Shown piece after piece: positions 1 through 58,490 of a stretch of 64,000 nucleotides of DNA. The notes below the pieces were generated by a model that made no database searches, was not told the DNA's origin, and saw only the letters and a list, made by a program, of their open reading frames with translations. Positions within the stretch are counted from its first letter, which is position 1. Each line of letters opens with the position of its first letter. This stretch comes from Psammoneis japonica (taxonomy: Eukaryota), in assembly GCA_008632985.1 (NCBI GenBank), contig QPGO01000123.1, positions 1 to 64,000 of the forward strand, read 5' to 3'. The position numbers and the translations under genes are program-made.

Positions 1-645
1 CTCATGGGAACACCTTTTTTGGACCATGACAAGACTGTCTGACAATTGCCAACATCGCAAGTGTCCTCCAGGCTCCATTGCGTCGTTTGTTCCCCACAGT
101 GCGCACTTTCCAAAAATTGTGACGGCAGAAACACGACATGCCGTGATTGTGTGCTGACCAAGCCCCCAAGAAGGATGTCAAGCGCCTCACAAGTCCACAT
201 TGACACACACAACAGGTGCACCAAAGGATGCAGAGTGGGACGAAGCACAAAGATCCCAAACGGATGCGCTTTGGTGGCACCAACGACTTGAAAAACATGC
301 CAACATCACAGATGTCACAATCGACCACATGAGACAATCAATCCACCTTGCAAGCAGCAACAAAAAACAACAATGGTTTTTGGCAAATGGGAAAACGAAA
401 TAAAATGAGAAAACGCATGAAGAACTTACCTCGGCAATGTTGTCGACCATTCAGATGTTACCCGCAGCATGCAGCAATCGAAGCACAAGTCGATGCACAC
501 AACCGTTTGCACCGTGTCGCAACTAAAGCCCCCCAGGAAACCAAGCCAGTGTGTCAAACTCTCCACAACAGCGACAGAAAGAGATCACACATGCAAAACA
601 CGTCCACCCCACAATGTTTGCCATGCCGAGACACATCAAAGTGCA
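1..645. repeat. Unclassified dispersed repeat, TpA-depleted copy; inverted homologue at ~17745-18393
   Basis: By-eye alignment to the reverse complement of 17745-18393 (shared blocks GAAGCACAA..TCCCAAACGGAT, ATAAAATGAGAAAAC, AAGAACTTACC, CCCCAGGAAACCAA). No recognisable protein. Confidence 0.7.
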
Positions 646-1131
646 ATGTGCATGGCTGTTTCTTACGGTGCGATGTGCCAAATCGGGATCATTTGAGTGG
701 AATGAAGGAAATGAAGAGGATTCCCTCTTTTGTGTCATCACACAACTTGCACCATGTTGGACCGTTCATTTCCACTTGTCGTCACAGAAATGGAATTGTG
801 TCATTGTGGGATTCTGCACAAGTTCCAGTGCATTTCCTGCACAGTTTATGAAGAGCTGCCTGCGCAGCTGGACGATTGCCGATCTCAGAGAAATCCACTC
901 ATCTGTCCAAATGGTCTGGTTGTCATCTGTGTGCAGTCTGTCCATTGCAGGACAGATGGGCTGACACCCTCCCCTGATCTGCAACATCTAAAAATGGAAG
1001 GCAATGCAGATCAACTCAAAGAATGGGGATGATGCATGAGAACAGAATGGATGACAAGACAAAGTGTCCAGGCTCAGCTTGCAATCATAAAGGAGCCACA
1101 CAGCACAGGGCAGTGACATCTCCAAAAAGTC

Positions 1132-1133
<2 letters not shown>

Positions 1134-1163
<30 letters not shown>
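1134..1163 (+). repeat. (CAG)10 microsatellite
   Basis: Direct reading. Confidence 0.95.
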
Positions 1164-1164
<1 letters not shown>

Positions 1165-3949
1165 GCGAGTGTGTTGATCCATTGGAGTGTTCAACAAAAA
1201 AAGTCAAAGGCAGCTTCCAACAAATCTTGCGTGTCAATCAAGTCTTGAGTGCAAGAAAAATTTTGTCAATCAACAAACAATCAAATGCAAAAGGACTTTT
1301 CTGGCAAGTTGCAATGTTGCTGAATCTCATCTGGCAAAAATGGGGCTGGATTGAAATTCGCCATGGCGCGTGATGCAGCAAAAACAAAGCAGAAGCAACC
1401 CACTGGACAAAGCAGTGCCTCTCTGTCACATTTTGTTTTGCCCTTGAAAAAAAAAAACTTTGGACAAAGAGAGTGCATCATAAAAGTCATCAACATTGGA
1501 AAAATGTGTTCGCATGACAGGCAAGGATGGCAGGGCGTGCAAGCAGTGGTTGTCAAATGTGGTGTCTTAAAAGAATCTTCATTGCTCAACAGCCTTGCAT
1601 GCTTGCACTGCACTGTGGGGATCCCTCCCCTGTTTAAAGCATGCAGGGTCATCGTCAGCAATGGTCCACAGGTAAAAATGCTGTTTGACACCATGACGGT
1701 CTTGTCAGCAAACAAAACAGGTGTTGTGGTGGAAGGCAACATGACTTGGTGGCCCTCTTGCAGGGTTGCCCCACTTTCATGGAACTTGCAGGCTTCCTCT
1801 TTGCTGCAAGAGGACACAACTTGACGTGGAAAGAAGGTGGATGCTGGGTGGGTGAGCGACGTGCAAATCTTGATCACCCAATGTGGCATCTTGATTGAAT
1901 CTCAAATGCTGAAAAGCCTTGTTTGCTTCCTCTGCACTGCAGCAATGCCTCCCCCAATCTTGAAATGCAGGGTCATCATCAGTGATGGTGGACAGGTTGG
2001 GAGCACCATGAAAAATGCAATGCAACAGGCCAACGTTCTGGATGGTGGAGGGAAGAGGTTGCACAGTGGAAGGCAACAATGCTTGGTGGCCCTCTTTCTT
2101 GGTTGCCCCACTTTCACTGGTCAGGCTCAGATGAGAGAAGGAATGGCAGCATCCCACATCCAAAATTAACGACAGCCAAACCAGTTTGACAATCAACTGA
2201 TTTCTTGCAGCGTCCACAAGTGTCATCCAATGGCGTTGCACAGGCGGCAAGCAGCTCATGTGCAACCTTGGCAATGGAGCATGTTCCATCCTTTAGAGGA
2301 GCATGGCCGCCATTGCATGTGACACTGGAATTGTCAGAACCAAAAAACTGAGGGGTCTGAAGAAGTCTGGCATTGACGTTTGCAGAAAATGCCACCAATC
2401 TTGCAGACAGCACTGGGAAACCAGCTCATTCACTGTGGATGGCTTGCTGCTGGGGATCACATCAGACTTGGCAGACTTGATGTCCAGCAAAGTTCCATTC
2501 ATGGGATCTGTTCTAGCATCCACATCAAGTGCATTGTCAGCACACGTTGTTGTCAGTTCTCCAAGAAAGTCTGTGCATGCTGGAGCAGCTGGTGCTAAAA
2601 GAAACAGCCAAACCGGTGCCACATTGGGAATGCCAACAGTTTTGGGATTGATTGGGTCAGATGCAAATTGGAGATCTGTCACCAATGCAGTGTTCTTGAG
2701 GGGCAGAGGAGCAATTCCATTCAGCAAACACTCTAAAATTGGGAGAAAATCCCAATCAATGCACGCAAGTGTCGCGTGAGTCTCTTTCAGATGATTGGGA
2801 GGCTCAACAGTGACTGCAGTGGATGTCATTGGACAAAAAATTGTTGATGACAAAGGTTCTTCTAAAAAAAGGTAAAAGGAATTGGTCAGTTGATTGTGGT
2901 TTGTGATTGAAGTCATCAAAAGGCTTGGGGGGTGGTTGCAGTTGGCAATGTGGTCTTTGGATGACAGTGACAGTGAATGCAGCCCTGCAATGAACAAAGG
3001 CATTTGTCACTTTGATGAGTCTTGGACATGTCTTGCAGAACCATTGCTTGAAAGCGGTGGCACAAACTGTGAGACGCGAGTGTCACCATGACAGTGGAAA
3101 GGGTCAAAAACAACATGTGCAACACACCAGCCAAACCAATGGATGCAAAACACCTTGATCCAACCTGGAACCTGGAATGAAAAGAGGGAACAGAACTACA
3201 AGTTACGTCCATCTTGGAAGAAAATGGATGCACAGTGAGTGACATTTGAGCTGAAATGCCATGCAAAGGGGCACCCATCATGGACATGTCATTGCAGTCA
3301 ATTGTGTGCTGCACTGACTCATTTGCACATGCTTGGCACTGTGTTTTGATGTCATCTAAAGAGGTGGGCTTGGATTGTCATCTGTGAGGGGAGACATGAC
3401 CAGAGCTGTCAGACTCACACAAGTGGCATTGATTGCAACTTGCAACCAGCCCATCAGATGGAGGAGGTGGAATGGCGGACAACAACAAAACATGATGGCC
3501 CTCTTTCACAGTCACCCTGCTGCTGTCAGTCTTGTTTGGACAATGTGAGCATTGGCAGTGGTGCAGATCTGAAATTGACAATGGCCAAGCCAAAAATCCA
3601 AAGTCAAGGGAACTGGGTGACTGTCCATGTGGTGACGACAATTGTCCATGTCAAATGACAGCATTGCAGGAGTTTGTGACAGCATTGGTTCAATCTTGGA
3701 AAGAGAGAATGATCCTTCTGTCTTGTGCACAATGCCACCATGGCACAAAACAGTCAAAATGTCACAATGAGTGCTTGGGGGCTGAAGCAAAACATCCTTG
3801 ATGTCATGGGGAAGTTCCAAAATTTATCATGCAATGCCAGAGAACCAGCAGCAACCACTGCAGATGGCTCACTCACAGGAACCACAACAGATGCAGGAGA
3901 CTTGATGTGCTGCACAGTGGTGCTCATGGGATCAATCCAAGCACCTGTT

Positions 3950-4600
3950 AAAATTGCATCTTCATTGTGAGTCACATCTGCATGATCATGGCTGGCAGAC
4001 TCAGTGTGGCAGCATCCATCTTGGAATCTTCAAATGATGCATGATTGCTCCAACAAGACAAGGCCTGAGGTGAGGAAGAGAGCATGAAGCTTTTTCACAT
4101 CCATCACAGTCACCAGAAGGTAAAGGGTCTGGATTGCATTGATCCTTTGTACAAGGGGGGTCATCCGTGCCCTTGTCAAAGTGCACACACATGCCCCTGT
4201 TGATCTGAGAGGTTTCAGGATCCCGCCACAGGAGGTGTGCTTGTTGGCATCAGATGAACACCCAAGGAAAATGCCCTTCTTGGACATGGGGTGTAACTTG
4301 GAGCAATTGCAATTGGGTTCTCTGACCCAAACATGTGAACCATTTTCAATCTCCCCAGTGGCCTTGGTGTCAGGAGTTGCATGGTGATCCACAGACATGA
4401 CAGGCATGGCAGAGTCTCCATGAGACAAGTTGGCAGTCACAACAAGCAATGTGGACTGCAATGAGGAACCGCACAATGCCATGACAAGGTCTTGAATGCC
4501 AACTGAGGTGGGTGGTGCATTCATTGTTGGATGTGACATGCATTGCAGCAGCTACCTCCAGGATGCATGGCTGCATTCATGCGGAGTGGTGCAGTCACTG
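3950..4600 (-). mobile_element. Degenerate Ty1/copia integrase C-terminal relic; boundaries uncertain, probably extends to ~5.9 kb
   Basis: Minus-strand peptide SHVWVR..SKLHPMSKKGIFLGCSSD..HFDKG resembles the copia FG..V..R.KL..RS.KGIFLGY..HFDE region with Y->C. Confidence 0.55.
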
Positions 4601-6389
4601 ATGAAGGACTGTGCCAGGCCTTGACAAGATTGAGTGTGCCAATCAACAAGAAACTCACATTTGTTGCTGGATGAGGCAGATGTTCTTGTGGAGGTTGACA
4701 CTGGGGTGCAACATGTGGTTGTGCACAACATGATGCAATGTCGTGCAAAGCCATTGCAAAATGGTCCATGCAGATCAATGAAGGATTCATGGTTGACAGT
4801 GGTGGAGCTGCAGGTGCTTGTTTGGATGCATGCAGAGAAAGAGAAAACTCTTTCCAATCTCCATAATTCCATTGCATGTCAGGATCGAGTGCATGCACAT
4901 GCTGTGTTGACATGAGAACATGTGCAGCATGCTCGTGTTGCTGAAGATTAAACTTGATCATGGATGAGAGACCTTCAGTTGTCAAATGAATCATGTGAGG
5001 CTCAGCAGGGCCCAAATAAAAAAAGGACTTCATCCACAATTGTCTTGATGGACTGCATGTCCACAGGATCCACCGTGCAAGGTGGAAATGCTTGGTTGAC
5101 AAGAAACTCATGGAATGAGTCCACAAAGTTCTTCTCAGGCCAAGTGTGATCTGGGTCTTCAAAGAATGGATCCAGATCAAGCATGGAATCCGCACACAGC
5201 ATGCTCAGGGACTTGTGGACGTGTGGTGGAGTGTCATGTGCTTGGAGTGTGTGACAGATCTCTGCAATGGACGTGGGAGCAGCCTTTGCAGGGTCAGGAG
5301 ACACCATGGCTGGACTTGGAGAAAACATTTTTGGTCATGCACATGTGGAAATCTGGTGTGTTTCCACGAGTGTGAAAAATGACAGGAATGAGAGAAAAAC
5401 ATCCTTTTGGGAACAAGAGATGAGGCTTGCTTGATCAGCTCACAAAACAAATGAATCGAAACAGAAAGCATGGTGCAGAGTTCAGCGGCACAGCGCAAGG
5501 CCACAACCTGACAGAACACCAAAGGGCAATGAGGACAATGGTGTGATGGAGTTCCCAGGTTTTTTTGTGCAACAATGTAACAACTGCACACAAGCTCCAG
5601 GGGAGGTCAATTGAGAGCCTGATTGTTGACAAAATTTTGACTGCAGAAAGACAACTGATGGGTTTGTGTGGTTCTGTCCAGAGTGACCACAAGAAAGAGA
5701 CTTTGTCTTCAGGAAGAAGCTTGAAAGGCAGGAAAATGAAGGGCATGTCTTTGGCATTGAATGAGTTCCTCAGGTGCTTGAGGCACACAAGAAGGGGCTC
5801 CAAGAAGGCTCTCAGGCTCTTGCTGCAAAAATGACCAGCCAAAGATTGAAATCACCAGACATTGATTTTTAAAACATTGTGGCAACAATCTGGGCTTGCA
5901 TCATGTGATTGTCCTTTTCAGGCACAGAAAAAAGGGGGTGAGTTGTTTTGCTCATGACCCGCAGTTTGAAAGTGATTGTTTGCACAAAAAGCACAAGATT
6001 CAAAAATCGATCTCTCAACAGTGAAGAAGTGCAATGTCATGCAGCATTCAAAGACTTGGGTGAAGAATTGAAAGACAAAAGCAGCTGGCATTGAAACATT
6101 TGTGACCAATGACCTCTAAATGGAAAATCAACAGACTGGCCAATTGGTTGGCCAGGAGGAGTCAATGGCATCTCAACCCAAAAATGACTGAGGCAACTCA
6201 AAATTTGACCTGTCACACGCGCATTTGTGAAGTTTTTTTTTTTAGAAAATGGGTGTCATGTGGTTGATGCAGTCATGCAAACAAGAGGTGGATTTTGTGC
6301 ATGGTTTCCATCATCTGCACACAAAGTTTGAATGAGATCTGGTGCCATTTGCCGCATTTGTGATGGTGTTTTGGCTGTCTTGGGGCTGT

Positions 6390-6800
6390 GCACAGAGGTC
6401 ATCCGCAAGCTGGTGTTTGGCATCTGTTCTTGGCAGCGGCACAGTCTGGCCCAAGCAGGGTCATTTGGTGCTTGCACAGGGATGGACCATTGCCATCTTC
6501 CCACTGGCACCATCTGGAGCTGATCTGGGACAAAGGGATGCATGATTCCCTGAGGCAATGGTGAGTTGCCCACACCACTGACACTCATTCTTGCGTTGAC
6601 ATTGCTGCACACCTCTGAGTGTGGCTTTTGCCATTTGTTGGTCAGTTTGGAAGAGATCCTGCACAGCACTGCCTTGGCTTCTTTTGCCAAACAGTCCATC
6701 ACATGACACTGGTTGATGCAATGAAGGGAGCAAAGTGGTGACACTGCAATCAAACACAATGTGACAGCCACTCACAAGGGAGCTGTGCATCTCATGTCCT
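6390..6800 (-). mobile_element. Degenerate 3' end (RLE endonuclease tail) of a CRE-like non-LTR retrotransposon
   Basis: Peptides DCLAKEAKAVLCRISSKLTNKWQKPHSEVCSNVNARMS and VVWATHHCLRESCIPLSQISSRWCQWEDG match the typical L..KW..PYS.V..YV.ARMS.A.VRATHLCLRGSR tail. Confidence 0.65.
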
Positions 6801-8699
6801 TTTGATCAGCATTTTTGCCAGCAGCTCAAACAAAGTGAGTGAATCCCAATGCAACACAAGAGCAAGCACAGTGCCTCCTCAAGCCCCATTTCAAAACAGC
6901 AGCACTGTCACTGAAAACCCAAATGCACTTAGATTGTGGAAGAGAATGTGCAACACCATGAGTGCATCTACCCTCTGATCAGGAACAGACTGCACCATCC
7001 AGATTCATTGTTTGCTGGGTCAACTTTGACATGGCCAATCTGCACGTCCACCCCATTTGACCAACACTGGACTCTGCACCATGCAGCCCTGTTGCTTGTT
7101 GTCCATGAATGCTTCAAGCCAATGGCCCATCAAAACCAGTTCTCCACATCAGCAACAAGGTCCAGTCCTGAGCACAACTGCAAACATCATCACAGCAGTT
7201 GGTGGGGGGAATTTTCATTCCTGGATGTGAGGTGTGTCCCCAGATCCCAAATGACATTGCTTGACAAGTCGTGAATCCTTCCTGTTGTTGGCACTGAAGG
7301 TCAATGCCACATTGTCCATTGTGGCTCCAATGATGGCCCCTTCCAGCAGTCCATCAAATCTGTCTGCTGAGTGCCAACCATCACACACAGCCACATCAAA
7401 AGCTCCAAGGGTTTGGCAAGGCTGGGTGATGGCAAGTCCATCAAGGAAAGGGTTGTCTCTGAGTTCAACTTCACCAAAACATGTCTCACAGCATGAGAAT
7501 GCTGCGCCTTGCTTCTTGTTGGTGTCTTCAGCATTTGCTTCTTGACAAGCAATTTTAGCTCCAATGAGTTCAACTGCAAAATGACATTGTTGGGCAGTGG
7601 TGAGATTTGAGAACCACAAGGAATCTGCTCAGCAATTCAGTGGGGAGAAACAAAAGGGCAAGTTGATGATCTGATGGGCTGCCATCTCTTGATGAGAAAT
7701 CAACAATGATGTTGGTTGTTCCCAGGAACCACTGACTGCAGGACTGGCTCTCAGCTTGGATCATGATCTCAGCAAAGTTGCGTGCTGTCACCAGCTGCAT
7801 GTGGGATCTTTGACTTTGTCAAAGTTTGACTTGTGCAGAGCCACCCAGATGCCAAGGTGCTGTCACCTTGTGATGGTGTGCATGAGAGCACACAGGTGAG
7901 TTTCTTTTGTGCCCTGTGCATGCAATGGGTGACGAAAACCAGGCCTGCAGGGAGCATTGAGCACTTGTCTTTCTTTGTGGGTGTGGGTATGTGCCGTTGC
8001 ATGCTGCATTGCCTGCACGTGTGCAGGGCCCTGCTGCCGGGGCCGGTGTCAGTTGTGGCGGCTGAGTGGCATGGCCGCCGCACCGGTGATGCGGGTGGCC
8101 ATTGCATTTGATGTCTCATGCCATTTTTGGGGCTGCAGCAACGTGCACGGACACTCTTTTTTCCAATTTATCGCCACAATGGTGCGTTGCACAAACTCAC
8201 TTGTTGTTTGACATGTTTTCCCCAATGTGACTGTTTTGTGTAGAATTCACGATAAATTGTCTTTGTTTGCAACTGCATGCATTTTTCAACATGCCACACC
8301 GGCAATCCCAATTTTTCAGCACTTTCGAGCTCTCCTGAAAAACTGTTCCACACACCTGTCGCAGGGAATTTGTTGATTTTTTAGGATGTCCCCAGGACCT
8401 CTCATGTCCTCAATGATCATTCTGCGAATCCGAAGAATTCATCTGTGCCAAACAACCCATCCCGTTCCAAAATCTGAGGGACACACTTTCAAATTCAGAC
8501 GGACTGCCGGACTGCCCGACCCCCCGACTGCGGGGCCGACACGAAAAAGTCTGCAATTGCCAACCACTGAGTGGTCAATGATGTGGATGTGTTTCAACTG
8601 CATTGATGTGAAAATTATGAGCCAGTTCATGTGCAGAGAAATGGAATCGTGCAAATGGGGAATCTTGTCAAATCAGCCATTTGTTCGCATTTTGGATCG

Positions 8700-11600
8700 C
8701 ACCAGTCGATCGTGCATTTGCACTGTGGATCGTGTGAATCATGCCATCATGCGCCATGTGTGAGTGATGTCATCATGTGGAATCACACCACTGTTGTGGG
8801 CCAGACAACAGGTTGGTGTGCTTCACACGGGTGCTCTCTTGGCATCCTTCTAGTTTGCCTGAGACACAGAGCCATGCCCTCCTGTGGTCATGCTTCCCAG
8901 GTGCGTGCTGACAACACTGCATTGCCACGCACAAGAGGCTGTGCATGGTTGCGCCGTGTTGTCCAGCACTGAGGCATGCTGCACACTCCCCCATGATCAG
9001 GGCCGTTGAGTGACAGAATGTCTCACTGGTGATGGGACACAATCTGCCACAGATTGCACGCATCTGTCAGCGCTCCGTTCTGGGTGCACAATGTGCCGTT
9101 GTCACACACACGGACAACTCTGGCAGGTCCTGCACAGCAGTCAGAACCGCACTTAGAAGATTGTTCTTGTTTCACAAGTGCCAATTGTCCAACGGTGTGT
9201 TGGCACTCCTTGCATTTCTGATTTTCATGCTCGTTGTTTAAGTGGACAAGCTTCTGCTTTCTGGTTTCCATGTGCTTCCACTTGGCACGATGAGCAATGG
9301 ATAAAACCGCATCATGTCCAAAGACCAATTGCGCAGGGCTTGCACACGTGGTCGCATGTGCCACAGCTCTTGTGGCGAAGGCTGCAGCAGATGGAATGCC
9401 ACTCCATGGGTCATCCTCGTCCACTTCCATGTCATGTGCTGAAAATGAACGCACCACATTGCCAAGTGTCTGGTGTGCACATTCGACTGTGGCACTCACC
9501 TGTGGATTGCGTTTGCTTGTGGGTTTCTTCAGAATCCCACAGTCATTTTTGATCATTTGGCTAAATTCTTCCATGAATTCTGTCCCATGGTCACACACTG
9601 TCTGGGTTGGCCACAGACATCTGCACAGCCAGGTTTGTTCCACGACGTTTTCCACTGCATCTGCGCATTTCGCAGACACTTCCTTGATCTCAAACCATCC
9701 GGTTGCCGGATTGATCACAGTGACCGCCCACAATTGCAAGGTGTCCTTTCCGCATCTTTGGATTTTACAGGGCCCTGTCATGGCTGTGCATGGAGTCTCC
9801 CATGGAATTGTCTCAGCAACCTTTTCTGGCAGCTTCCCATGATGCTGCGTTTGGCGTTTTGTCCTCTGGCATCGTTCACACTTAACGCATGTAGAATGCA
9901 CCGTAGACCTCACACTGGGCCAGCAGAAGTGCTGGGCAACAGATGTTTCCGCATGTGTCTCACCCAGATGACACAGTGTTTCATGGTGCCATTCAGTTAA
10001 CGGAACCTGCAATGACTGTGGCACTGCAATTTTGTCCTTGTGACACATTGACTGTCATGATGACCCTCCCCCACGACACGCGCAAATGGAGCAGTCAGAC
10101 AAGTCCTCAGCTTGTGACAGCAGGCGCTTGTCCTGTTGTTGCTCTTTTTGGATGCGCTTGAAGCCAACAGGTGCAGGTGCGGCATCTGGCACATCTGCAT
10201 TGAAAGCTTCATGCAAGGGATGACTCGATGGAGTGTCCTCTGCATCCGGATTGGATTTGGAAGGCAAAGGTGGTGCCAGCCGAAGGCAACCAAGAGTGTC
10301 AGCGACTGGGTCATGGGCACCCTTGACATGTTGTAATTCGGGACTGCATTCTTCACATGTTGACCACCAGCGCATCACGTGTTCGGCATTGAATGCTTCA
10401 CATGTGAGATTTTTATGATCAGTGTGTGCGACCACACGATGACCAAGGAGTGTCGTTCGAAATTCTTTCAACATCTCCACAATGGTGGGCAATTCTCTCT
10501 CCATTGTTGTGTGATTTAATTGCATGCTGTCAAGCTTTCTGCCATGAAATGTGACTGGTTTATTGTCCTGGGATGTGGCTGCTCCCAATTGACATTTAGA
10601 GGCATCGGCATGCATCTCAAAGGGTTTGTTAAAATCAGGATGTGTCAACAACACATCTTTTGACAGTGTCCGCTTGACGGTTTCAAATGCCTTGTCTTCA
10701 ACGGACATCCATTCCCACTTGACAGTCTTGCTAACGAGTTGTGTTGGTGGAGCCAAGACTTCAGAACGTCTGATCCACGTGTCGTGGCAGCAGTTTGCCA
10801 AACAGACAAATGAGCGCAGGTCGCGCTCATTTGCAGGCTTTGCGATGCGTTCAATGGTGTCGACTTTTGCAGGTGTTGGCTGCATGCTGTCATGGTTGAC
10901 AAGATGACCCAAGTGCTCTGGTTGGGTTTGACAGAAGTGTGACTTAGTTGCGTTAACTTCAAGTCCTGCTTTCTGGACCCTCAACAGCACTTCTTCAAGT
11001 TTCTTGAGGTGATCTTCACAGGTGCCTTTTGTCATGATGAGAAGGTCATCTGAGCATGTTTGAACAAATGACAGATCTTCAAACAAGCCTGACATGCACT
11101 CTTGGAAGATGTCTGGCAAATTGCATGACCCCGTGGGCAATGCTTGCATCTCATGCTTGCCCCACAGGAAGATGAGCGCACAGAGCTTCTTGCTGTCAGT
11201 GTCCAAACGAATGTGATGATGACCCACATTAAGATCCAATGATGCAGCCCACACAAAGCCTTTGAGCTTTGGTGGCACATCTTGGACATGAGGGATTGGA
11301 CAAGGTGATTGCTTGATCCATTTGTTCAGCTCCCTGAAGCCATTGATGAACCACACCGTTGAGTCTTTCTTTGGCATGATAAATGATGGAGCCGCCCATT
11401 GGGATCGGTTGAAGTGTTTGAGAAGCAATCGTCAGTGTGATGTCCACAGTTGGTCCCGTGGAGCATGCATGACTTCTGGGTGTTCTTCTGATTCGTGATC
11501 AACAACTCAGAATTGTCCGTTCTGTGGCCCCACTTGCGTGGGACCTTAACATGTTGGTCCTGGTTACCTTCAGCAGACTCAACCTGCTCAACCCGCTTGC

Positions 11601-11800
11601 AGAATTGTAAAAACTCGAACATGGTGTGAGCCAATGGGTCAAAATTCTGTGGTGTCATGATCTTCTGCCACACATTTGGCACTCTGCACTCAAACAAGTC
11701 ACAGAGTTCGTCATTGGGTGATGACACCGGTGCTGCTCCTCCCTGCGTCACAGGCGAAAACTGAGTGTCATGTCCGTCAATTTCAACAGCCCTCACAACA
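8700..11800 (-). mobile_element. Internally deleted, heavily mutated Ty3/gypsy relic (gag end, RT-RNase H 10055-11428, integrase 9023-10048)
   Basis: WAAPSFIMPKKD, SLDLNVGHHHIRL, DASKCQLGA, TDHKNL, HETLCH..CERCQ, DHGTEF; gag-like CMLHG..GHHTDDC; PPT-like GGGGGAG at 8986-8992 on the minus strand. The left LTR edge is approximate. Confidence 0.9.
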
Positions 11801-44439: not shown

Positions 44440-45004
44440 TTAAGATTGAATTGAATTGAACATGATGGTCGGACATGCAAAAGATCTTTTCGCGCAAAAG
44501 CTGTGCAAAAGGTGGAATCCACTGCAAGGAATCCGGAATCCCAAATGTCTGAGAATGTGGGAATTCCTGACCAAACAAATGTCCGTTGAACAAATGTGTG
44601 CAGCACTGGGAGGTGTTGGACAGATCCAAATGCACAGATCTAATCCAACATCCAGCAGTGGAGAAGGCAGGTGCATGCTTCCACCGCCAACAATGTGCGT
44701 TGTCGAATTTTTTGGGTGATGATGATGAACGCTCAATGGCTGAAAATGAGCAAGACTGTCAATCTGACAGAAAATGAAGATCACTGGGGTGGAAGAAAAC
44801 AATGGCTCCTTGCTGCTGTCTAAACAACAGATGAGTCTCCATGCAGAGACCATCGCAGGAGCCGAAGGACTGGTGTCATGATGTTGGTGCTGCTGTTGTC
44901 ATTCTTGTGAGCCATGTGGCTTGAAAGCAAACCACATGCGCGCGGAGCCAAGAGCAAACACACAATTGTGTGCAACAAACCAAAATCTTGTTCAAATCCT
45001 GTCA
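44440..45004 (-). mobile_element. Relic of a related CoDi: 5' LTR (44765-45004) plus adjacent internal leader
   Basis: TGACAGAAA..CTCCTTGCTGCTGTCTAAAC..GATGAGTCTCC..TTGTTCAAATCCTGTCA, preceded by TGAGCAAGACTGTCAATC, matching 35083-35377. Confidence 0.88.
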
Positions 45005-48334: not shown

Positions 48335-49110
48335 CTCAGCACCCATTGCAGCAAAGGTGTGAACGCCAACATTGACCAACTCGATTGTGAAAAAAAACAA
48401 TGCTTTTGTTGGATTTTTTGCTTGCCCTTGCCTTTTGGGCTTTTGGGTGTTTGATGACTTTCGCTGCAAGAGAAAAAACACACGGTGCCAGCGCGGTGGT
48501 GGCAGCAGCATTGATGTTTCTACGGCACTCGGTGATTTGAGGACAAAGGTGAGAATGCCAACACTTGCTAAAGTGAGCTTTAAAAAACTCATGGTTGTGT
48601 TTGCATTCATTGCAAAGCCTGTCTTTTGGGCGTTTGATGTTTTTTTTCTGTTGCGCAGTTTTTCTCTCACTGTTGCTCTTGTTTTGTGATCACTCACAGG
48701 TCTGCCCAGCACCCATTGCAGCGATGGCATGAACACGGTTGTGGATGAATGTGATTGTGAAAAAAAATGATGCTTGCAGTGGATTCATTGCTGCTCCTCA
48801 CCTCTTGGGTGTTTCAAGACTTTTGCTCCCAGAGAAGGCGCTGACAGGACTGCCAAGTCTGACACAGCAGCACTCACAATCAAGCTTGGCACTTGGGCTG
48901 CAAAGGTGTGAACAACAGAATTTGCTGATGAAAGTGTTGAAAATGTGATGGGCATGTTTGTTTGTTTTGCACATTGCATCTTTTGTGCATTTGATGCTCC
49001 CCAAGTGTGGCACAGTCATTCCCTTGCTGCTTCCACTGTCTTGCCATCCCCCACAGGTCCACTTGGCACCCATTGCAGCAAAAGCACCACAATGATTGTG
49101 GACCAAACAG
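48335..49110 (+). repeat. Degenerate repeat units beginning GCACCCATTGCAGC within an unclassified TpA-depleted relic
   Basis: Copies near 48339, 48709 and 49067; the first two also share GATTGTGAAAAAAAA..TGCTT..TGGATT. Confidence 0.6.
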
Positions 49111-52100
49111 TTGCTGCAAAATGCGTCTCAAGCCCAGGATGTGGAAAAGTCTGGAAAGATCCACGGTGGCAACCCTTGGTCGTGTCTTTGGCGCTGTGGA
49201 GCAGCTTGTTTTCTTGTCAAGCTGGAGGAAGTGCGATGAGGTGCTGATTGTTCTTTAAGCCAATGCAATTGTTCAGTGCAATTTAAACACAAAACTCACA
49301 ACAGTGATCTCAAACAGGTGCTTTGGAGCTTGTCAAAGTGGAAAGTGGTGCAAGTCATCCGTCTGCTTTCCCCACAAGGAGCATGAATGTTTCTGCTGCA
49401 CTCAAGACACCTGTGAGTGCTGCTTGCCATGCCGCCAGATGTGCAGCTGGCATTGGCACATTTGCTGGGTTTGCATGTGGCAAAGCTCATGGTTGAGATG
49501 CCGCATTGAGACGGTGGAACTTTCAGCATTTTTTTGTCCACGCAGTTGCACCCGACCTCGCCAAGGACAGATGATTTAGATCACACAAAAGGGGCACACA
49601 GGGCAGATTTTTTGGCTCCAAAAATTCTGCTGTGCCTTCCACCTGAGTGGAACAAACAGTGGATGTACAGCAGAATTTTTTAGAAAGTGCTGACCCCACA
49701 TGAGAATTCCACTTTTCCAGTGGAAAAATGCTGCTTGGGTGGAATTTTGGCTGTGACGGGCCAGTGCCTGGTGCACACCACTGCTGCTGCTGCTGCCAGC
49801 TGCTGCAGCTCTGAGCTCTGCAGCAGCTCTCTGCCAGAGCTGCTGGCCACAGGCTCAGATGTTCAACTGTGCAGGCAAGACACTGCATGCTCCAACTGCT
49901 TGGATTTCACGGACATCACATGTTTGTTGTGCATGAACACAATTTGCATGCTCCTCAGTTGCATGTGCTGTGTAAAACAACACTGCAGGAGTCACGCAGA
50001 AATTCACGGACAAGCATCCGTTGGAATTTTCTCCCTCCAACACGAGAGCAAAGAGAGCAAAAAAAAAGAAAAAAAGTTTCACGACGTTGTTGCTGTTGTG
50101 TTTGTTGTTGCAACAAACGCCCTGCCCCTCTTCAACACTGCACTGTTGCACACTTGGGCATTGTGGACAGCCCCAACATGGACATGTGTGATGAAGCTGA
50201 CAACATGTGCAGCAACATTCTGGATTCAGGCAAAGACAGAAGATCAAGACTTGGAGGAGTTGGAAGGTTGCCAAGAAATGTTGAGCGCAATGGTGCAACG
50301 CGATCTCCAGTGCAACCGCCACTGCTTGGTTGGGAAGAGAATGTTGCAACTCATGCTGTGATTCACACTGAACTTGATGAGTTTTTCAAGTGTGTGTGCA
50401 GCAAAACTTGCAGAATGAGGACACAAAGCACAAACTTCAACCAGACTCTCCCACGAAAGGATGAGACATGGCTTTTGATGAGCTTCTGGTCTCTGATGCT
50501 CACGCGGCACACTTTGACCATCGCTTTTAGAAGCACAAAACACCAGACACTGTTCTGGCTGTGACTGTAAACAGCTGCTCCCATTTTAACTAGAAATGTC
50601 TGCAACTCTCCAGCTGCAAAGTTGTTTTGGAAGACCTTGATGCCCCACAATGCCAAGCTGAGTGCTGCCACCATTCACTGTGATCTTGTCACAATCCTTG
50701 TGACTCTTGCACACATTTGTTCAGGGGCATGATTCCATCCCATCATGGCTTCCTCATCACCAACAAGGAAGCACTCACAACTCACTTGCGTCAACAGAGA
50801 CGAGAAAAAAAGGATGTTGGTTGATGGTTCAGTGCAAAAAGGCTGCAGAATTCCATGCAGAAGCAGAAGAAAAAAAATCGGCCATGACAACATGCCATCG
50901 GCAATTTCATCACAATGCAAATGGGGCTGTCAAGTGCCAACACCAGAAACGTGTGACACAACACCAAGTTGATGAGATTCCCATGGTCAGTGCTTGACCG
51001 CCCCACTTGCATTGCTGTGCATTTCAACCGTCATTGTCGTTGTGCTTCACCATGGCAAAACACCCAAAATCGGTGCCCAAAACAGAATGAACCCGGCAAA
51101 GACTGGGAAAAACCCAGAAGTGCATCGGTGAAAATCAAGTCATTTGCTGAATCCAAAAGTTTCTGAACAAATGTAAATGTTGATTTTCTGCTGTCCTGCC
51201 CAGTGTCTGGTCTGCCAAGCACCTCAACTGAGGTAAAAACCTCAATTGAGGTGGTTTTTTGACCCCCCTCACTAAATTGCTAAAACCTTTGCAGCCCTCA
51301 AGTGACATTAGAATGTTGTTCTCCATGCTTCAAAACATCTTGCAACAATTGTGCTCTTTGTTTGCCACCGACCACACATTTTCTTCTTCACCTTGTTGGC
51401 ATGCAAACACTCGCATCCCAAAAATGCGTGAATTTTGGGACTTTGATGATGATGCAACTGCCGTTTTACAAACTCTGGGACTCTCTCAACAATCCACCCT
51501 CAAAAAATCATGAAACACAACAAGGACGACCTTGTCATGGTGGCCCGAGTCTTGAAGTTGAAGCGACAGTTGAGAAAAGGAGGGTTCAAGCGAAAAACAC
51601 AAAAAACGGCACCTGAAAAATTCGGGTCTGCAACGATGGCGAATGCAGGGTGGATGAGCTGCAGGATGTCTTCTCTGTTCTCTGCACAAGAGAAGCTTGC
51701 TGCATTGTGTGTGGAGCTTTCAAGGAGCTTTTTTTGCAATCGCAGCACCAGAACTGCTGTCGCGATGAAAGACCGAGATCACCAATCTTTGTGTCGATTT
51801 GTGTCACCACAAAACACAAAACAATCAACAATGACAATCACATGAAATGTCAACAGGCATTAAATGCGAGATGATGCGGTGGTTGAAAGCTTGTCAAAGG
51901 GTTGTGATGAAAGTGATGGGCCATTTTCGCGTCCCACGTTTGTGGCCAATTCATGGATCTCAAGATTCAAATTTGGCACAAGCGAGCACATTGTGCATGT
52001 AAAGCAAGGTGTTACGAGCATTGCAATGGCTTTGTTGGAATTGAAATCGTCGTCTCTCGTGTCATTTGCCAAAATGGCATGTTATTTTCTGTCTGCGGTG

Positions 52101-52862
52101 CGTTTTGAGGCTACGGCTGGGACAAGCGCACTGATTCTACGAGATAGAGCATGTCCCCAACCCGCGCTTAGTCATAAAATGTCCCCGAAAAAAGCGTGCC
52201 GGCGATTGATTATTCGTGGCCCCCGACTGCGACAAACTCGTTTCATATGTACCGGTAGACCTATTCAGAAGCCTTGCCACTGCAAATCGACGCGACTTTC
52301 CTTTATGTATTTCATACTCCCCTATGCCCGCGATGTTTAACGAAGTTCTGTCAACGGCAAAACATTTATTTAGGGATGAACCAACTCTACTCTCTAGTAG
52401 AAGTAGCTACTCTAGCTAGTGCTGTAGCTAGCTACTCTCTCTCTAGTAGAGGTCTACTCTAGCTCTCTAGCTAGAGTGCGTGGTTGTAACGTGGAATGAT
52501 GCTGGGCAACTCTTGGGATCATGGACAGTGGCTTTGGTTCTCCTTCAGTGCGAATCGACGCTGGTAGGCGGAATAGAAGTCGGCATTTGTGTCAGTTTTG
52601 ATTGGGGATTTGCGTGTGACTCTTTGTAATGATTCGGTGTTGTGTTGGCAGAGGATTTGACATGACGTGTTTTCGTATGGAGGAGAAGGCGCTGTCGGAG
52701 TTTTCGGTGAAGGATTTGAATATATGGACAAAAGAATAATAAGATTATCAAAAAATTGCTTTGATCACTCTCCTCCAATAGAAGCCGAAGTGCCGAGGGT
52801 ACTTCAATGACTGCTTTCAGGCGGCGCCATTGTTCTCTCCTCTTGGTTGCAATTTCTCAATC

Positions 52863-54383
52863 TTACAGCTGACTAGCAGGCACGATTCGGGCTGCCTTTC
52901 CAAGCACACGTTGAAGAACGGATGTTTGAGGCTCCCGTCGATAGACAGTCTCAGTACCATTTTCCATTGCTCTCCATCGCAGTCTACCCTTGTCGTTCAA
53001 GAAAAGTTCAAAGGTGTGAGCCGGTAACGCTTCCAGCAACTCTTGGGAAAGCTTGTCTGTAAGGTAGGAGTCACGAATAATCACTCCGCATTCCGTGTTG
53101 AGTTCCTCCGAACGTGGATCAAAATTAAACGATCCAATAAAGAGTTCCGTGCTGTCCACGAAGAATTCCTTGGTGTGAAGCGTCGTTACTGCGTTCTTCT
53201 TGGCATTGACATGCTCTGATCCTGGAACTTGTGAATCTGCCCGGACTTCATAAATCTTGACACCAGCCTTGAGCAGTGGCTTTCGCACGGGTGCGTAGCC
53301 CCCATGAACCATAAACATGTTGTTGGCCGCAAGTGAATTTGTAATTATAATAATTTCAACTCCACTCTCTTGGGACTCACAATACTCTTGTATTTCTTTT
53401 TCAGTCGGCACAAAGTACGCGGAAACGACAATGAGCCTCTTCCGTGCCTTTTCCAATGACACAATCAAGGGCTCTGTAATTTTAACAGACAGCCGCTGGG
53501 CACGGCTCGGAACGCCCTTGTTTGGAGAATCCACCACAAGTTGGTATGGCGCCCAGCGAAAGTCTTGAGAAAGGATATCGTCCTTTTTTTTGGAACGAAG
53601 CACTTCGGCATACTTTGAGTCCTTAAACTTTTCAATACCATGTTCAAGTTTGCTTCGAATTGTCTCGTACGTGGCATTGGGATCTTTGAGCGTTTTGCAA
53701 AAGGCAAGTGCCGGCAAGGCTGTCTCATGATTCCAATATCGATCAAACGAGGCAGACACATCCTGAACCACGGGCCCGACCGCCACGACATCATCATCGT
53801 GAAACTTGGCCGTCTCATTAACACCAAAGTATTCGTCTGCTATGTTTCGTCCTCCCAACACAGTCATTTGATTGTCCACGGTAAAGGTTTTGTTGTGCAT
53901 TCTTCGATTAATGCGATCAAAGTCACGTGCGGTCCCCGCAATGGATCGCTCGGTAAGAATGCTGCGTTGAAATGGNNNNNNNNNNNNNNNNNNNNNNNNN
54001 NNNNNNNNNNNNNNNNNNNNNNNNNNNNNNNNNNNNNNNNNNNNNNNNNNNNNNNNNNNNNNNNNNNNNNNNNNNNNNNNNNNNNNNNNNNNNNNNNNNN
54101 NNNGGTACAAAAAAGCACCTCCAACTACATCATCCTTCATGAGATAATACTGTGTATCGATGCTCTTTTCTGCCTTCTGTGCCATCAATAGTCTCGTCGC
54201 AAGAGCGTCTGTTCCATCCACGAGAAATCGAAAGCCGGATTGATTCAGGGGCTTGTTGGCACTCATTTCGGACGCTAATTTTCCAAGAACGGTGTCTGCG
54301 GTATCTTGTTTTTGCAGCGCCTGAGATTCTAGCCTTGGGTAGTCATAATCTATATTCTGTTCAATGCTATTGCAGCAGTTCAT
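52863..54383 (-). CDS. Phospholipase D superfamily, cardiolipin synthase ClsC/YmdC-like; spans an N gap (53976-54103)
   Basis: Two HKD motifs, RRMHNKTFTVD..GGRNIADEYF and LHTKEFFVD..IGSFNFDPRS..LNTE.G; SIDTQYY, SAYFVP, TNSLAAN, EPQTS. Confidence 0.9.
   Translation of the reverse strand: MNCCNSIEQNIDYDYPRLESQALQKQDTADTVLGKLASEMSANKPLNQSGFRFLVDGTDALATRLLMAQKAEKSIDTQYYLMKDDVVGGAFLYXXXXXXXXXXXXXXXXXXXXXXXXXXXXXXXXXXXXXXXXXXXPFQRSILTERSIAGTARDFDRINRRMHNKTFTVDNQMTVLGGRNIADEYFGVNETAKFHDDDVVAVGPVVQDVSASFDRYWNHETALPALAFCKTLKDPNATYETIRSKLEHGIEKFKDSKYAEVLRSKKKDDILSQDFRWAPYQLVVDSPNKGVPSRAQRLSVKITEPLIVSLEKARKRLIVVSAYFVPTEKEIQEYCESQESGVEIIIITNSLAANNMFMVHGGYAPVRKPLLKAGVKIYEVRADSQVPGSEHVNAKKNAVTTLHTKEFFVDSTELFIGSFNFDPRSEELNTECGVIIRDSYLTDKLSQELLEALPAHTFELFLNDKGRLRWRAMENGTETVYRREPQTSVLQRVLGKAARIVPASQL
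53976..54103. other. Assembly gap (N run)
   Basis: Run of n. Confidence 1.
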
Positions 54384-55948
54384 GATGAGTGCTTATTGTC
54401 TCTTTGGAACAAGCACTCCCTCGTTGGATGGACCGGGGGACCGGGCAGCAGCTACTGGCCTACCGGACTCCCACTGCTCGAGTGTGGGTGGGCCTAAGTA
54501 ATTCTAAAAACCGTTAACGGCCGTTACTATGTAATTTGGTAGTATTTTGGTACTCTATATATGAGGCATTTATGTAGAAATTACGTACGTACAAACATTA
54601 GGGGAAACGAGCGTGGAGAAGAGACGACGCGAGCGAAGCACGAGCGAAGAGACCGACAATGATGCAAGTGCCGGAGAGAGACGCAAGGAGAGCAATCCAA
54701 CGATATTGCAAGGGCGCAAAAGAGAGGAAAGATCTATTTGAGTGAGTACCATATCTTCAATAAAAAGAACAAAGCAAGAAGACATTGGCATGCACAAAAA
54801 CTTACACAAAGAAGCACGGCACCAGCGCCTGCAAAATGACCACATCTGCGGTGACACAAAACAACACAAGGAGGTGAGAACATACTTTTCTACAAATACA
54901 ATGCAACAACGAGCAAACGACCAATAGAAACTCACCAGTAGGGTCAAAACTTGGGGTGCCTGGATCGTCAACGGCGGGAGGAACGACGGATGAAAGAGAG
55001 TCTGCTGGTTCCACGGAGCAGGACGACAAAAGCAGGCGGTAGATCGGCATGAGCAATGGTAGAAAGTCGGCGCTTGGGATCGAGTGACTCGTCCAGTCCA
55101 TAAAAGTCGTGGTAGTAGCTTGGAGAACGGAGGCAGCGCCATGGTAGGACGGCATGGACCGGGACAGAAGCAGCGCGCCATGGTGGAACGGTGACGGAGC
55201 CAAAAACGGTGACGGCGACGGTGTAGACCCATGGACTTCGATATCCCCATCTTCGAGTCCTGTGCATCAAGATGCGGGACAAGGAGGTTCAAGGTGAGCG
55301 CCATTGCGAACGAGAATGGGGGAAAACGAGACTTGATTCCGTGAGAATCAGAACTCACCACATTTTGAGTCATTCTGACCCATTCTAGAGCCGCGGCTCA
55401 CTCACATAGCACGACCCAATGGAGTATAACACTATCAAGCAAGGTAGGGGTCGGGAGGCGGTGTCGTACCGGTCAAATCGGCCAAAAGCGCCATTGTCGG
55501 AGGGAGCGGTGGTTGTCGATCGGCCGCTCGGAAAAATTATGAGCCATCAACTCGACCGCGCACCGTTCGGAGTCGAACAAAATTTCTCGGTACAAAATGT
55601 ACACAAATGTACGTCAGTATAAAAATCGTGTAGAAGGGTTGTAAGTAGAACCGTTACTCTCTCTATGTAGACTACAAGGATTCTGCCGTTAAACTATACC
55701 AATATGTATAATTCTACGTGGTCGATTTGAATCAATCCCACCAACGTTTTTGAATTTCGATCGTAATAACGGCTTTAGGTGCTGAGATGAATATAATATA
55801 TAAGTTTGAATTAAATATCATATTTAGTGTTAATAATTTTGAATGATTGCGCGACTGCCAGTCGGCACCAAAAACCGTCGCCAATAAGTAAACCGCAATA
55901 CTTTGGTACTTCAGTCTTGCACATGAAAGCGCTCCCTAAGTAGTTAAC

Positions 55949-56309
55949 NNNNNNNNNNNNNNNNNNNNNNNNNNNNNNNNNNNNNNNNNNNNNNNNNNNN
56001 NNNNNNNNNNNNNNNNNNNNNNNNNNNNNNNNNNNNNNNNNNNNNNNNNNNNNNNNNNNNNNNNNNNNNNNNNNNNNNNNNNNNNNNNNNNNNNNNNNNN
56101 NNNNNNNNNNNNNNNNNNNNNNNNNNNNNNNNNNNNNNNNNNNNNNNNNNNNNNNNNNNNNNNNNNNNNNNNNNNNNNNNNNNNNNNNNNNNNNNNNNNN
56201 NNNNNNNNNNNNNNNNNNNNNNNNNNNNNNNNNNNNNNNNNNNNNNNNNNNNNNNNNNNNNNNNNNNNNNNNNNNNNNNNNNNNNNNNNNNNNNNNNNNN
56301 NNNNNNNNN
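55949..56309. other. Assembly gap (N run)
   Basis: Run of n. Confidence 1.
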
Positions 56310-58490
56310 CTCAAGCGCGGCGGGCAGTGCTCCGCAGTCTGCTGACCTCGAAAGTCCTCAAAAGAGATTCCGCATTCTGTTCTGTTGAAAGTTGTGGTGT
56401 GCTGGACCTTGCGCTGCTCATTGGGAGCAACATGACGACACGGTCATCGGAGTGCTGTTTCACCTCTCATTCTTCTGAAGAACAACAACACAACAGCCAG
56501 TCATTTCCTGGACAGTTTCAATGCCGTCCATTCAATGCCGGGTGCCCCCTGAGGGTGCCACTCTTTTCTCCAGGCACACAGCAGCCTGCTCATCAGAAGC
56601 CCCCCCCGGTGCTGTCAGCTCTGCAGCAGCCACAACCAGCAGTGCTGTGAGCAAACCACAGCTCTGGTGGCACTGCCACAAGCCATCAGCACTTGCACCA
56701 ATTTTTGTGTGAGACTGCTCTCCTCCTCACCTTGGCACACACTCGGGGACCTGCCAAGAGGCCCAGCACGACAAGATGCTGCTGGCAGATGGATTCTTCA
56801 GCTCATGACAGAGGGCTGGCTCTCCTGCTAAATTTTTTGCATGTGCTCAAACCGGCTCTTGTTGCAACCAAATAAAAATGATTTCTGCAACTGTGCCTCA
56901 ATGGCATGAAGGGCGCGACTCAGAGAGAAATTCAGCTCTGCAAATTTGCACAGATGCGTTGCTGAGGCAAACCAAGGGTGGCTCGTGCGTGAGAGCTTGT
57001 CACTTGGAGAGACCAGCAGAGGTGATTTTTGATGTGCTCTGTGTTTGTGTGCTGCAGTGTGCTCTGTTGCAACCAAGAAAGTGCTCCATTTAAAAGCATT
57101 TTTGTGTTTGTCAAAGTGAGCAATTCCACACAGCAAAAAAGGCCAATCTTCTGGCACTCACAGTCAGCCAGCTGCACCCAAGCTTCCCGCAACCTGAGCC
57201 ACAAACCTGAGTTCACCACATTGCTTGCAATTGTCAGTGTGTCTCACACTGCATCGGCATCCCATGCACAATCGTCCCATGGAAAAATGGGGTGCGCATC
57301 AACAACATTGCCTCTCTGTCCTGCAAAGACTGCCTCTGGCACCAATGTTCTGACAACTGCAGCTGACACAGTCATCTTCTTCATTGCGCCAAACTTGCTG
57401 CAGCTCTTCTTTTCTTCCAGATGATGGGGGGGGTGTTTGCCCACTTCTTTGCCAAAGAGTTCTTGCCTTGAGGAGTTTTTGCCCACCTGCAAAAAAAGCT
57501 TCCACATCAAAGCCACAACCAAATGGTGCAGCATGCATGCAGACAAAAGGTTGTTTTTGTCACGCCCTTTGTGACATTTAAAGGCTGTGACACATCGCCG
57601 TGATGCATTGACTCTCATTGGCAGCTGTGTGCTGCACTCCTCCCCATGTGTCACGCGTCCATGCGGCTCTTTACCAATGTGCACTGACACTGCACGGTTT
57701 TGGCGGAACAGTGTGGGTGCACATGAAGGAACACACAGAACTGCACAGAGTTTTACGCATTCGACAGTGATCAACGTTGCTGCAGACAACTCCCACTCAG
57801 GGTTTCGAACCCCTGGCCTCCTGCCTGATGGTTGTGATGAACCACTCCGCTGTGAATTCACAATGCAGCATGCATGCAGACAAAAGGTTGTTTTTGTCAC
57901 GCCCTTTGTGACATTTAAAGGCTGCAACACGTCGCCATGATGCATTGACTCTTGCCAGCAGCTGTGTGTTGCAATGGGGTGCACACACCCTCAAGACAGA
58001 TGCTTTGCTTGCTCTTTGCTTTCTTTGCCAGCAAAGTCAGCGCTCCCCCCGGCATGCTGGTCCATGGCGCAACACACGCAAGAACACAATGAACTCTTTT
58101 TTGTGCAAAGCAAAGCTGTTGCTTGTCTCTCTTTTGCACTGACTGCAAGATTGTAGATCACTCACAGCACATGGCACTCCTGCAGCAGGCGTCCCTGCCA
58201 CAGCCAAAGATGCTGCCACTTTCCTGCATCTGCAGGCTGTTTCCGCAGCGACGCTGGCCCCGCAGAAACAAGCACTGGAAAACGTGGCTCCTGGCATGAG
58301 TCCCATGATGGGCTGTGGGAGTTCCACATGACTGAGACTGGCATCACTGGCCATCGCACAAGTGACTCACGTTGTGTGAAGGGTCTGTGCAGGATGCGCA
58401 CAGCGCAGAGTGTGATTGGTTTCGCACAAGGAGGGCTCAAGCTCCGCATGTCCCGCTGTCATGCACACACGTGCTCTGCACAAAACAGTC
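56310..58490. repeat. Unclassified TpA-depleted repeat relic with 110-bp direct repeats (57527-57636 and 57864-57973)
   Basis: TGCAGCATGCATGCAGACAAAAGGTTGTTTTTGTCACGCCCTTTGTGACATTTAAAGGCTG occurs twice, 337 bp apart. Confidence 0.7.

Follow-up and report, generated by a model that had tools for sequence, protein, structure and literature searches.

The 64,000-nucleotide stretch of the diatom Psammoneis japonica analysed here (assembly GCA_008632985.1, contig QPGO01000123.1, positions 1 to 64,000; hereafter the window) is a patchwork of retrotransposons, other repeats and host genes, and long parts of it are almost free of the dinucleotide TpA. A preliminary description of this DNA had proposed a repeat-targeted hypermutation of TpA to TpG and CpA. 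We arrive at a related reading, namely that a locus-targeted mutational process turns TpA into TpG or CpA in integrated DNA of this diatom, and we put its probability at roughly 0.85. By dinucleotide counts, the observed/expected ratio (o/e) of TpA is 0.27 over the whole window, with the depletion packed into blocks. Three tracts are strongly depleted: a repeat tract at 1-14250 (TpA o/e 0.07, CpG 0.29, TpG 1.79, CpA 1.87; 72 TA in 1-14300), a second repeat tract at 36000-52000 (TpA 0.08, CpG 0.38; 81 TA in 36000-52100, also 0.08), and a shorter tract at 56310-58490 (0.08 with 10 TA over 56300-58500), which stops about 170 bases ahead of the ULP1 reading frame. Elsewhere TpA is ordinary, at 0.54 in 17200-27800 (392 TA), 0.71 in 52100-56300 (185 TA) and 0.57 in 58500-64000 (210 TA). 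The borders of the tracts are sharp to within tens of bases, with for example no TA at all in 13800-14269, and the depletion is equally strong in non-coding and coding tracts. The window also holds two runs of N, at 53976-54103 (128 bases) and 55949-56309 (361 bases); the second adjoins the third depleted tract and hides its left border.

On one and the same strand the depleted blocks carry TpG at an o/e of 1.75-1.83 and CpA at 1.60-1.87, so both products are about equally abundant and the pattern is strand-symmetric. Dinucleotides other than TA, CG, TG and CA are unmoved between depleted and normal DNA (ApA 1.18 vs 1.17, ApT 0.94 vs 0.97), and the GC content of the depleted tracts, 0.48, is that of their flanks. 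CpG is depleted as well in the old tracts (o/e 0.29-0.41). Pyrimidine-purine steps (YpR) together make up 23.5-25.7% of depleted and 23.7-26.4% of normal DNA. Within this constant total, the share of TA falls from 3.8-5.9% in normal DNA to 0.5% in depleted DNA and that of CG from 5.1-5.8% to 1.7-2.7%, and the share of TG plus CA rises from 13.4-15.4% to 20.8-22.8%, so that the losses of TA and CG match the gain of TG and CA. The nearly TpA-free, TG/CA-rich tracts reported earlier are thus real, with one correction to their extent: of the block once drawn from 27.8 to 52.1 kb, only 36-52.1 kb is strongly depleted (0.08), and 27.8-36 kb is only moderately so (TpA 0.26, CpG 0.89). As for the patches suggested elsewhere, a LINE-like (long interspersed nuclear element) sequence at 14.3-17.2 kb is partly depleted (0.32).

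The direction of change can be read from a degenerate Ty3/gypsy pol gene on the minus strand at 9026-11431, a single frame with one internal stop in which Pfam recognises reverse transcriptase (RT), RNase H and an integrase zinc domain. We aligned its RT-RNase H region with 104 of 118 database homologues, those matching over more than 300 query positions, and counted a column as conserved Tyr when at least 60% of the homologues have Tyr there. None of the 16 such columns has kept its Tyr; nine read His (CAY), five Cys (TGY), one Trp and one Met. Of the other non-Arg conserved columns, by comparison, 146 of 211 retain their residue (Fisher p = 2.4e-8). The same picture comes from an independent set, made up of 87 among the best 150 representatives, with 0/7 Tyr kept (three Cys, three His, one Arg), and no other Tyr-free gypsy was found among these best 150 representatives (87 used). 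The 802-codon frame contains 0 Tyr, 5.2% Cys and 5.6% His; the medians of the homologues (n = 87) are 3.8%, 1.9% and 2.9%. Because family-conserved Tyr now reads Cys or His, the change runs from TA to TG or CA.

The replacements at conserved gypsy columns bear this out at the level of single steps. Single TA>TG/CA steps account for 38 of the 89 (20 TA>TG and 18 TA>CA), set against 17 CpG>TpG/CpA changes (e.g., Arg to His, Cys, Trp or Gln), six other transitions, ten transversions and 18 multi-step replacements. The TA steps include Leu>Pro (CCA), Leu>Ser (TCA), Ile>Thr (ACA) and Ile>Met (ATG) and, after a T-ending codon, Ile>Val, Thr>Ala, Asn>Asp, Lys>Glu and Ser>Gly. At these columns TA>TG/CA steps thus far outnumber other transitions, and the claim of the preliminary description that A changes to G on both strands agrees with the near equality of the two products, both here and in the tract composition.

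Four host genes identified by Pfam serve as controls, and all have ordinary TpA (o/e 0.39-0.58), as had been noted before: a phospholipase D-like gene (52866-54392, minus strand), the ULP1 protease gene (58662-60275, plus), a phosphomannomutase gene in two pieces (60812-61784, plus) and a Deltex-like E3 ligase gene (62278-63552, minus). The last was used as negative control for the Tyr test, and in an alignment with 79 of 120 homologues it kept 11 of 13 conserved Tyr, the other two being Phe and none Cys or His. Its named relatives are all diatoms (Attheya, Cylindrotheca, Amphora, Conticribra, Pseudo-nitzschia), the best match being 65% identical. The phosphomannomutase frames, 60812-61351 and 61359-61784, jointly cover the Pfam model, with a short intron or a frame change between them.

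Timing and substrate follow from two elements that retain both long terminal repeats (LTRs), since an element inserts with two identical LTRs. A young Ty3/gypsy element on the plus strand (19555-24454; LTRs 19555-19845 and 24164-24454, 97.9% identical) has six differences between its LTRs, and all six are transitions in YpR (p = 0.011): three sites with TA in one LTR and TG or CA in the other, one CG/TG site and one TG/CA double. In a Ty1/copia element on the minus strand (28266-35377; LTRs 28266-28542 and 35101-35377, 95.7% identical; RVT_2 in 28493-31294) all 12 differences are again transitions in YpR (p = 0.0004), made up of four TA/TG or TA/CA sites and four TG/CA doubles; five further sites are TA in both LTRs. 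Between the copia LTRs, all 21 CpG sites and all 133 non-YpR positions are the same. The TG/CA doubles would each represent an ancestral TA that mutated to a different product in each LTR, in which case about 12 of 26 TA copies have changed and nothing else. With 18 of 18 differences being YpR transitions, the changes arose after integration, on DNA, in line with the earlier view that DNA and not RNA is the substrate. The process thus acts on integrated DNA and on both strands.

A rough hand calculation from the LTR counts puts the TpA rate at no less than about 50 times background, taking 3/133 as the 95% upper bound for other sites and about 0.6 as the TA hazard per copy. TpA loss also comes before CpG loss, because the copia element has a TpA o/e of 0.20-0.22 with CpG still at about 0.9, and the delta-carbonic-anhydrase gene copy described below has 0.12 with 0.78. 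Among 76 polarised events there are 43 TG and 33 CA products, so the two base pairs of TA mutate about equally often. Along gypsy pol the order of the two products forms 20 runs where 19.9 are expected, i.e. no strand-coordinated clustering, though the element is saturated and the test is weak.

Not only retrotransposons are affected. Directly after the young gypsy element lies a copy of a delta-carbonic-anhydrase (delta-CA) gene, recognised by Pfam, on the plus strand at 24437-25625 (frame 24495-25625). It is the cleanest case for the direction of change. Aligned with 113 of 120 homologues, those shorter than 480 residues, it keeps only two of 11 conserved Tyr, with Cys (TGY) at seven of these columns, His (CAC) at one and Phe at one, and its other conserved columns are nearly all intact. 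Among the 113 homologues none has more than two such Tyr changes. Nine of 11 Tyr are lost and no Arg is lost to CpG decay, and among its polarised changes sense-strand A>G exceeds T>C by 8 to 1. The TpA-poor stretch fills precisely the interval between the gypsy 3' LTR, where the last TA is at 24436, and the stop codon, with its TA at 25626; the flanks are TA-dense. Given this limit and the normal TpA of a repeat of about 30 copies described below, copy number alone is not the trigger, nor is a chromatin domain of broad extent, and the limit at the coding sequence suggests a homology- or transcript-guided trigger. The direction claimed before holds in both genes, gypsy and delta-CA, whereas the claim that the process is confined to repeats holds only in part: the limits are sharp and neighbouring genes are normal, but one cellular gene copy is hit. 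The named relatives of this gene are diatoms (Seminavis, Nitzschia, Thalassiosira and an MMETSP entry "Core", probably Corethron), and the best matches are 80-81% identical. Genes of 400-500 codons in a single exon, as found here, also suit a diatom better than the chlorarachniophyte Bigelowiella.

Loss of TA depends on both neighbours. We expressed survival of each NTAN context as a length-normalised ratio to undepleted DNA. No ATAT survives (0 of an equivalent of 112), followed by ATAG/CTAT at 0.006, ATAC/GTAT at 0.009, GTAC at 0.02, CTAC/GTAG at 0.05, ATAA/TTAT at 0.11, CTAG at 0.14, GTAA/TTAC at 0.19, TTAG/CTAA at 0.43 and TTAA at 0.49. RTAY (R, purine; Y, pyrimidine) is thus nearly gone, and TTAA and YTAR are the best survivors. 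One-sided flank models for the base pair that mutates were tried on the 76 polarised events and rejected, their log-likelihoods being -66.6 and -60.7 compared with -52.7 for a coin flip.

Reads and further copies bear on the signature as well. Depth of a sequencing run, X1, which we used as short-word contigs, ranges over 1-14250 from about 59-71 in single-copy parts to about 3,200-14,600 at 8.0-12.0 kb, which is multi-copy, with depth reaching 14,600 in the gypsy region. One X1 contig of 1807 bases at single-copy depth (58) matches the depleted tract at 11854-13659 with eight differences and without strand-conflict bubbles; as it carries the depleted sequence, the depletion is real in the reads and not a consensus error. 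With X1 mapped to 1-20000, the window differs from other copies mostly by transitions (A>G 236, T>C 233, C>T 184, G>A 206; each transversion class 18-25). In the best-supported 40 of 1056 variant places, 12 have TA where the window has TG or CA and none the reverse, and 10 have CG where the window has TG or CA, with six the reverse.

Among the 104 gypsy homologues, three from JGI/ENA (P0449, P0436, P0508) have only 0.45-1.3% Tyr, with His or Cys at most of the 16 gypsy Tyr columns. A metagenome contig, L001, encodes at 699-3995 an intact, unmutated gypsy polyprotein of 1098 codons whose composition is ordinary (TpA 0.76, CpG 1.11), and this protein is 72-73% identical to the hypermutated P0449. 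The main differences of P0449 from it are Y>H (12), I>V (11), V>A (9), Y>C (8), T>A (7), I>T (6), L>S (5) and M>V (5). Self-comparison within the window adds a paralogous pair, a depleted repeat copy at 12-642 (plus strand) and an undepleted copy of a multi-copy repeat with normal TpA at 17750-18382 (minus). The 33 TA of the latter read 12 CA, 9 TG and 3 TA in the former, and in the reverse direction only one of four changed, an asymmetry of 21 to 1.

The remaining elements of the window differ in age and state. The young gypsy element has a 1409-codon open frame (19913-24139) in which three of seven conserved Tyr are kept (alignment with 87 of the best 150 representatives), and Cys or His already stands at some family Tyr sites, as in DASDC (22610-22624) and DHLGY (22298-22312). 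Its RT motif is YIDN, where YxDD is expected. In the copia element the motifs NACL (29891-29902) and TCGSEF (28910-28927) were located, so that the four altered motifs quoted in the preliminary description are indeed present in the sequence. Translated self-comparison places this copia element within a LINE-like element that it splits, one half lying at 35378-36544 (minus strand; 46% identical over 291 amino acids to 14411-16504) and the other at 27200-28265; both halves match 14283-16504 at 45-46% protein identity. The LINE-like element at 14283-17250 itself (minus strand, RVT_1 at 16508-17194, TpA o/e about 0.32) is odd in composition, with GC skew up to 0.38, TT o/e of 1.77 and a YpR total of 19.6% compared with about 24-26% elsewhere. 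The element at 17250-19554 is multi-copy, its depth being some 30-fold that of single-copy DNA in X1 and very high in a small run, X2; its TpA and CpG are normal though it is flanked by depleted tracts, and it may belong to an active, unsilenced family. The 36000-52000 tract includes inverted copies of one family at 36.1-38.6 kb (plus) and 45.1-46.8 kb (minus), as seen by translated self-comparison, and a solo copia-type LTR at 44731-44944, found by self-comparison.

What the process does to reading frames has practical consequences. TA>TG/CA makes no new stop codon (its only stop-to-stop change being TAA>TGA) and removes TAA and TAG, and long frames are found in dead elements because TAA and TAG are erased. 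The window's open reading frame list holds 133 frames of at least 120 codons in all six phases. In 1-14250 and 36000-52000 many long open frames overlap on both strands; they are non-genic, and gene predictors would call false proteins there. Most frames of 1-8 kb and 36-52 kb lack a significant Pfam match, as expected under heavy mutation. Loose-threshold Pfam searches on frames of 1-8, 36-52 and 56-58 kb gave only weak matches (SH3_retrovirus 2e-4, zf-RVT 0.024, Exo_endo_phos 0.14), the endonuclease and zf-RVT hints lying, weakly, in 36-44 kb.

It should be considered that several of our observations weigh against the reading of a targeted TpA mutator. The material is one 64-kb window, and genome-wide specificity is beyond its scope. 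Polarity is based on protein conservation and LTR logic, the nucleotide comparisons being without a true outgroup. X1, which may be the very data that the assembly was built from, excludes a consensus error without being an independent source. The repeat at 17750-18382 has normal TpA in spite of an X1 depth about 30 times that of single-copy DNA, and the young gypsy element has lost few TA so far, so targeting is not by copy number alone; the term repeat-guided, used before, is too simple when a repeat of about 30 copies is untouched and a cellular gene copy is struck. Flank models that fall below a coin flip mean that the context data give no enzyme type. Lastly, a process that makes no stop codons is odd as a defence.

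One alternative is editing of retroelement transcripts by an ADAR-like enzyme before reverse transcription, with copies inserted already mutated. ADAR and APOBEC enzymes work on RNA or single-stranded cDNA, before integration and with strand bias. They would resemble the process here as deaminase-type hypermutation against selfish nucleic acids, and the targets here are mostly retroelements, ADAR prefers a 5' U (a preference also cited in the Discussion of the Bigelowiella natans preprint considered below) and the 8 to 1 sense-strand excess in delta-CA would fit. LTRs, however, are copied from one template, and their 18 YpR-only differences place the changes after integration; both products lie on one strand (20 vs 18 in gypsy, TpG 1.79 vs CpA 1.87 in the tract), and non-coding repeat DNA is equally affected. 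The changes are thus post-integration and two-stranded, and we regard such editing as very improbable. Even less credit is due to an assembly or sequencing artefact, or a modified native base read as G or C. Heavy base modification gives systematic miscalls on some platforms and the N gaps point to a draft scaffold, but the X1 contigs repeat the depleted sequence at single-copy depth (1807 bases, no strand-conflict bubbles), and P0449, P0436 and P0508, from other sources, have the same Tyr>His/Cys pattern.

Equally hard to credit is the absence of any mutator, whether the tracts are TA-poor by selection, codon usage or foreign origin, or the undepleted copies gained TA by a CpA>TpA process resembling repeat-induced point mutation (RIP). 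Mild TpA under-representation is indeed general in coding DNA here (0.39-0.58 in the host genes), and the asymmetry of the 12-642 and 17750-18382 pair alone cannot give direction. Against this, Tyr present in 60-100% of homologues reads Cys or His both in dead gypsy pol and in the delta-CA copy, LTR pairs diverge at YpR sites only, undepleted DNA has ordinary TpA (0.54-0.71) with no excess, and non-coding tracts are depleted like coding ones. Error-prone repair by a Y-family polymerase recruited to heterochromatin had been listed as a candidate before; Pol eta makes A>G at WA and prefers TA, but ApA is undepleted (1.18 in depleted vs 1.17 in normal DNA), the loss is limited to TpA and both flanks matter (RTAY), and we now consider this route most unlikely.

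Returning to the targeted TpA mutator, we propose that it acts on already integrated DNA, where one or the other base pair of the TA step changes from A:T to G:C at a rate far above background substitution and above CpG decay. The targets are particular segments, namely silenced retrotransposon copies and one cellular gene copy. RTAY is preferred and TTAA/YTAR are spared, and together with slower CpG decay the process drives YpR steps to TG and CA. The codons destroyed are those for Tyr, ATA, TTA, CTA, GTA and A-starting codons after T. Its role would presumably be the disabling of selfish DNA.

The signature was known before only from the chlorarachniophyte Bigelowiella natans, and the earlier statement that nothing known gives this pattern has to be withdrawn. 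Mutation-accumulation lines of that alga showed a mutation rate about 1000-fold that of the remaining genome in a giant virus and a virophage, both integrated. Nearly all the changes are A>G or T>C, and they lie at TpA throughout. Reverse transcriptase and DDE domains are over-represented in clusters or coding sequences that are poor in TpA and rich in CpA and TpG, and the authors propose an ADAT2-like adenine deaminase (Mettrop et al., April 2026, bioRxiv 10.64898/2026.01.13.699255). In both organisms the hits are local (foreign DNA there) and the remaining genome is ordinary, TpA depletion and CpA/TpG enrichment occur in clusters, A:T>G:C transitions fall at TpA only with both products in one region, and the excess in rate has the same order (a measured 1000-fold or so there, a hand estimate of at least about 50-fold here). 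By this analogy, the process in P. japonica would probably be of the same kind. There are also differences. The host there is a rhizarian and here a diatom. The targets measured there are viral (the giant virus and the virophage), and those in the window are retrotransposons of the LTR and LINE types plus a single copy of a cellular gene. Depletion is deeper here (0.07 vs 0.45 for the viral region), CpG decay accompanies it, and there is an RTAY flank preference, none being analysed in the preprint's Results or Discussion. The evidence here consists of sequence traces, there of mutation-accumulation lines. We found no report of TpA hypermutation in a diatom in the open full text of PubMed Central and bioRxiv, subscription journals lying outside this coverage; the signature would be new for diatoms.

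Fungal RIP is the best-known process of comparable form. In ascomycetes it changes C:G to T:A mainly at CpA, which raises TpA, lowers GC and makes stop codons, and it is set off by duplication in a premeiotic stage. Like the process here, it is a DNA-level one on integrated repeats, with dinucleotide-context transitions on both strands, sharp limits at the repeat and inactivated transposons (RIP is cited in the Bigelowiella preprint and in PMC7296669). Its polarity is nevertheless the opposite, and we rejected it as an explanation: here TpA is near zero (0.07-0.08), GC is unchanged at 0.48 and stops are removed. As to a duplication trigger, the depleted tracts are repeats, but the repeat of about 30 copies is untouched. 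Decay of 5-methylcytosine (5mC) is closer in form, as it too acts at a palindromic YpR step on both strands with TG and CA as products, and the two coincide in silenced repeats. It is present in the same tracts, with CpG at 0.29-0.41 and with His, Cys, Trp or Gln in place of conserved Arg. Whereas 5mC decay strikes C in CpG, TpA loss is the faster of the two, with 0 of 21 CpG sites but eight TA-derived sites differing between the copia LTRs.

The enzyme may tentatively be sought among DNA-acting adenine deaminases of the TadA/ADAT type, and it is quite possible that the route is something else altogether. A further candidate, somewhat doubtful to us, is an enzymatic modification of thymine (or adenine) at TpA in silenced chromatin that would mispair at replication, conceived by analogy with 5mC at CpG and with 5-hydroxymethyluracil (5hmU) in dinoflagellate repeats. 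Oxidised thymine is mutagenic, and a 5hmU-type mark might be expected to yield T>C at TpA. We know of no 5hmU or TET/JBP-type enzyme in diatoms. In dinoflagellates 5hmU is made by TET/JBP enzymes, mostly in repeats where it overlaps 5mC, replaces T preferentially in TA and TC, and is tied to transposon silencing, according to passages of PMC11572971 that describe no mutational outcome.

Taking these together, one may speculate, though we think it unlikely in full, that TpA is a second epigenetic dinucleotide in some algae of the SAR group. T:A pairs of (R)TA(Y) in silenced selfish DNA would be marked or edited on both strands, and decay of the mark or direct editing would erase TpA as 5mC erases CpG. 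If common to diatoms (Stramenopila) and chlorarachniophytes (Rhizaria), the system would be either ancient or horizontally spread, and as it also strikes gene copies over their exact coding length, its trigger would be homology- or transcript-guided.

The finding means that TpA hypermutation is not limited to one species, and that its trace can be much deeper than previously seen. It widens the target range, which now takes in ordinary retrotransposons (LTR and LINE) as well as a copy of a cellular gene, and adds a flank preference, RTAY, and an order of rates, TpA before CpG. Annotation of such genomes is misled, as stop-poor tracts fill with long false frames and unrecognisable transposon proteins. 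The hunt for the enzyme is now opened, by comparing the gene content of lineages with and without the signature, transformable diatoms included. Diatoms thereby provide a second, tractable lineage for a kind of process that has been known for only months.

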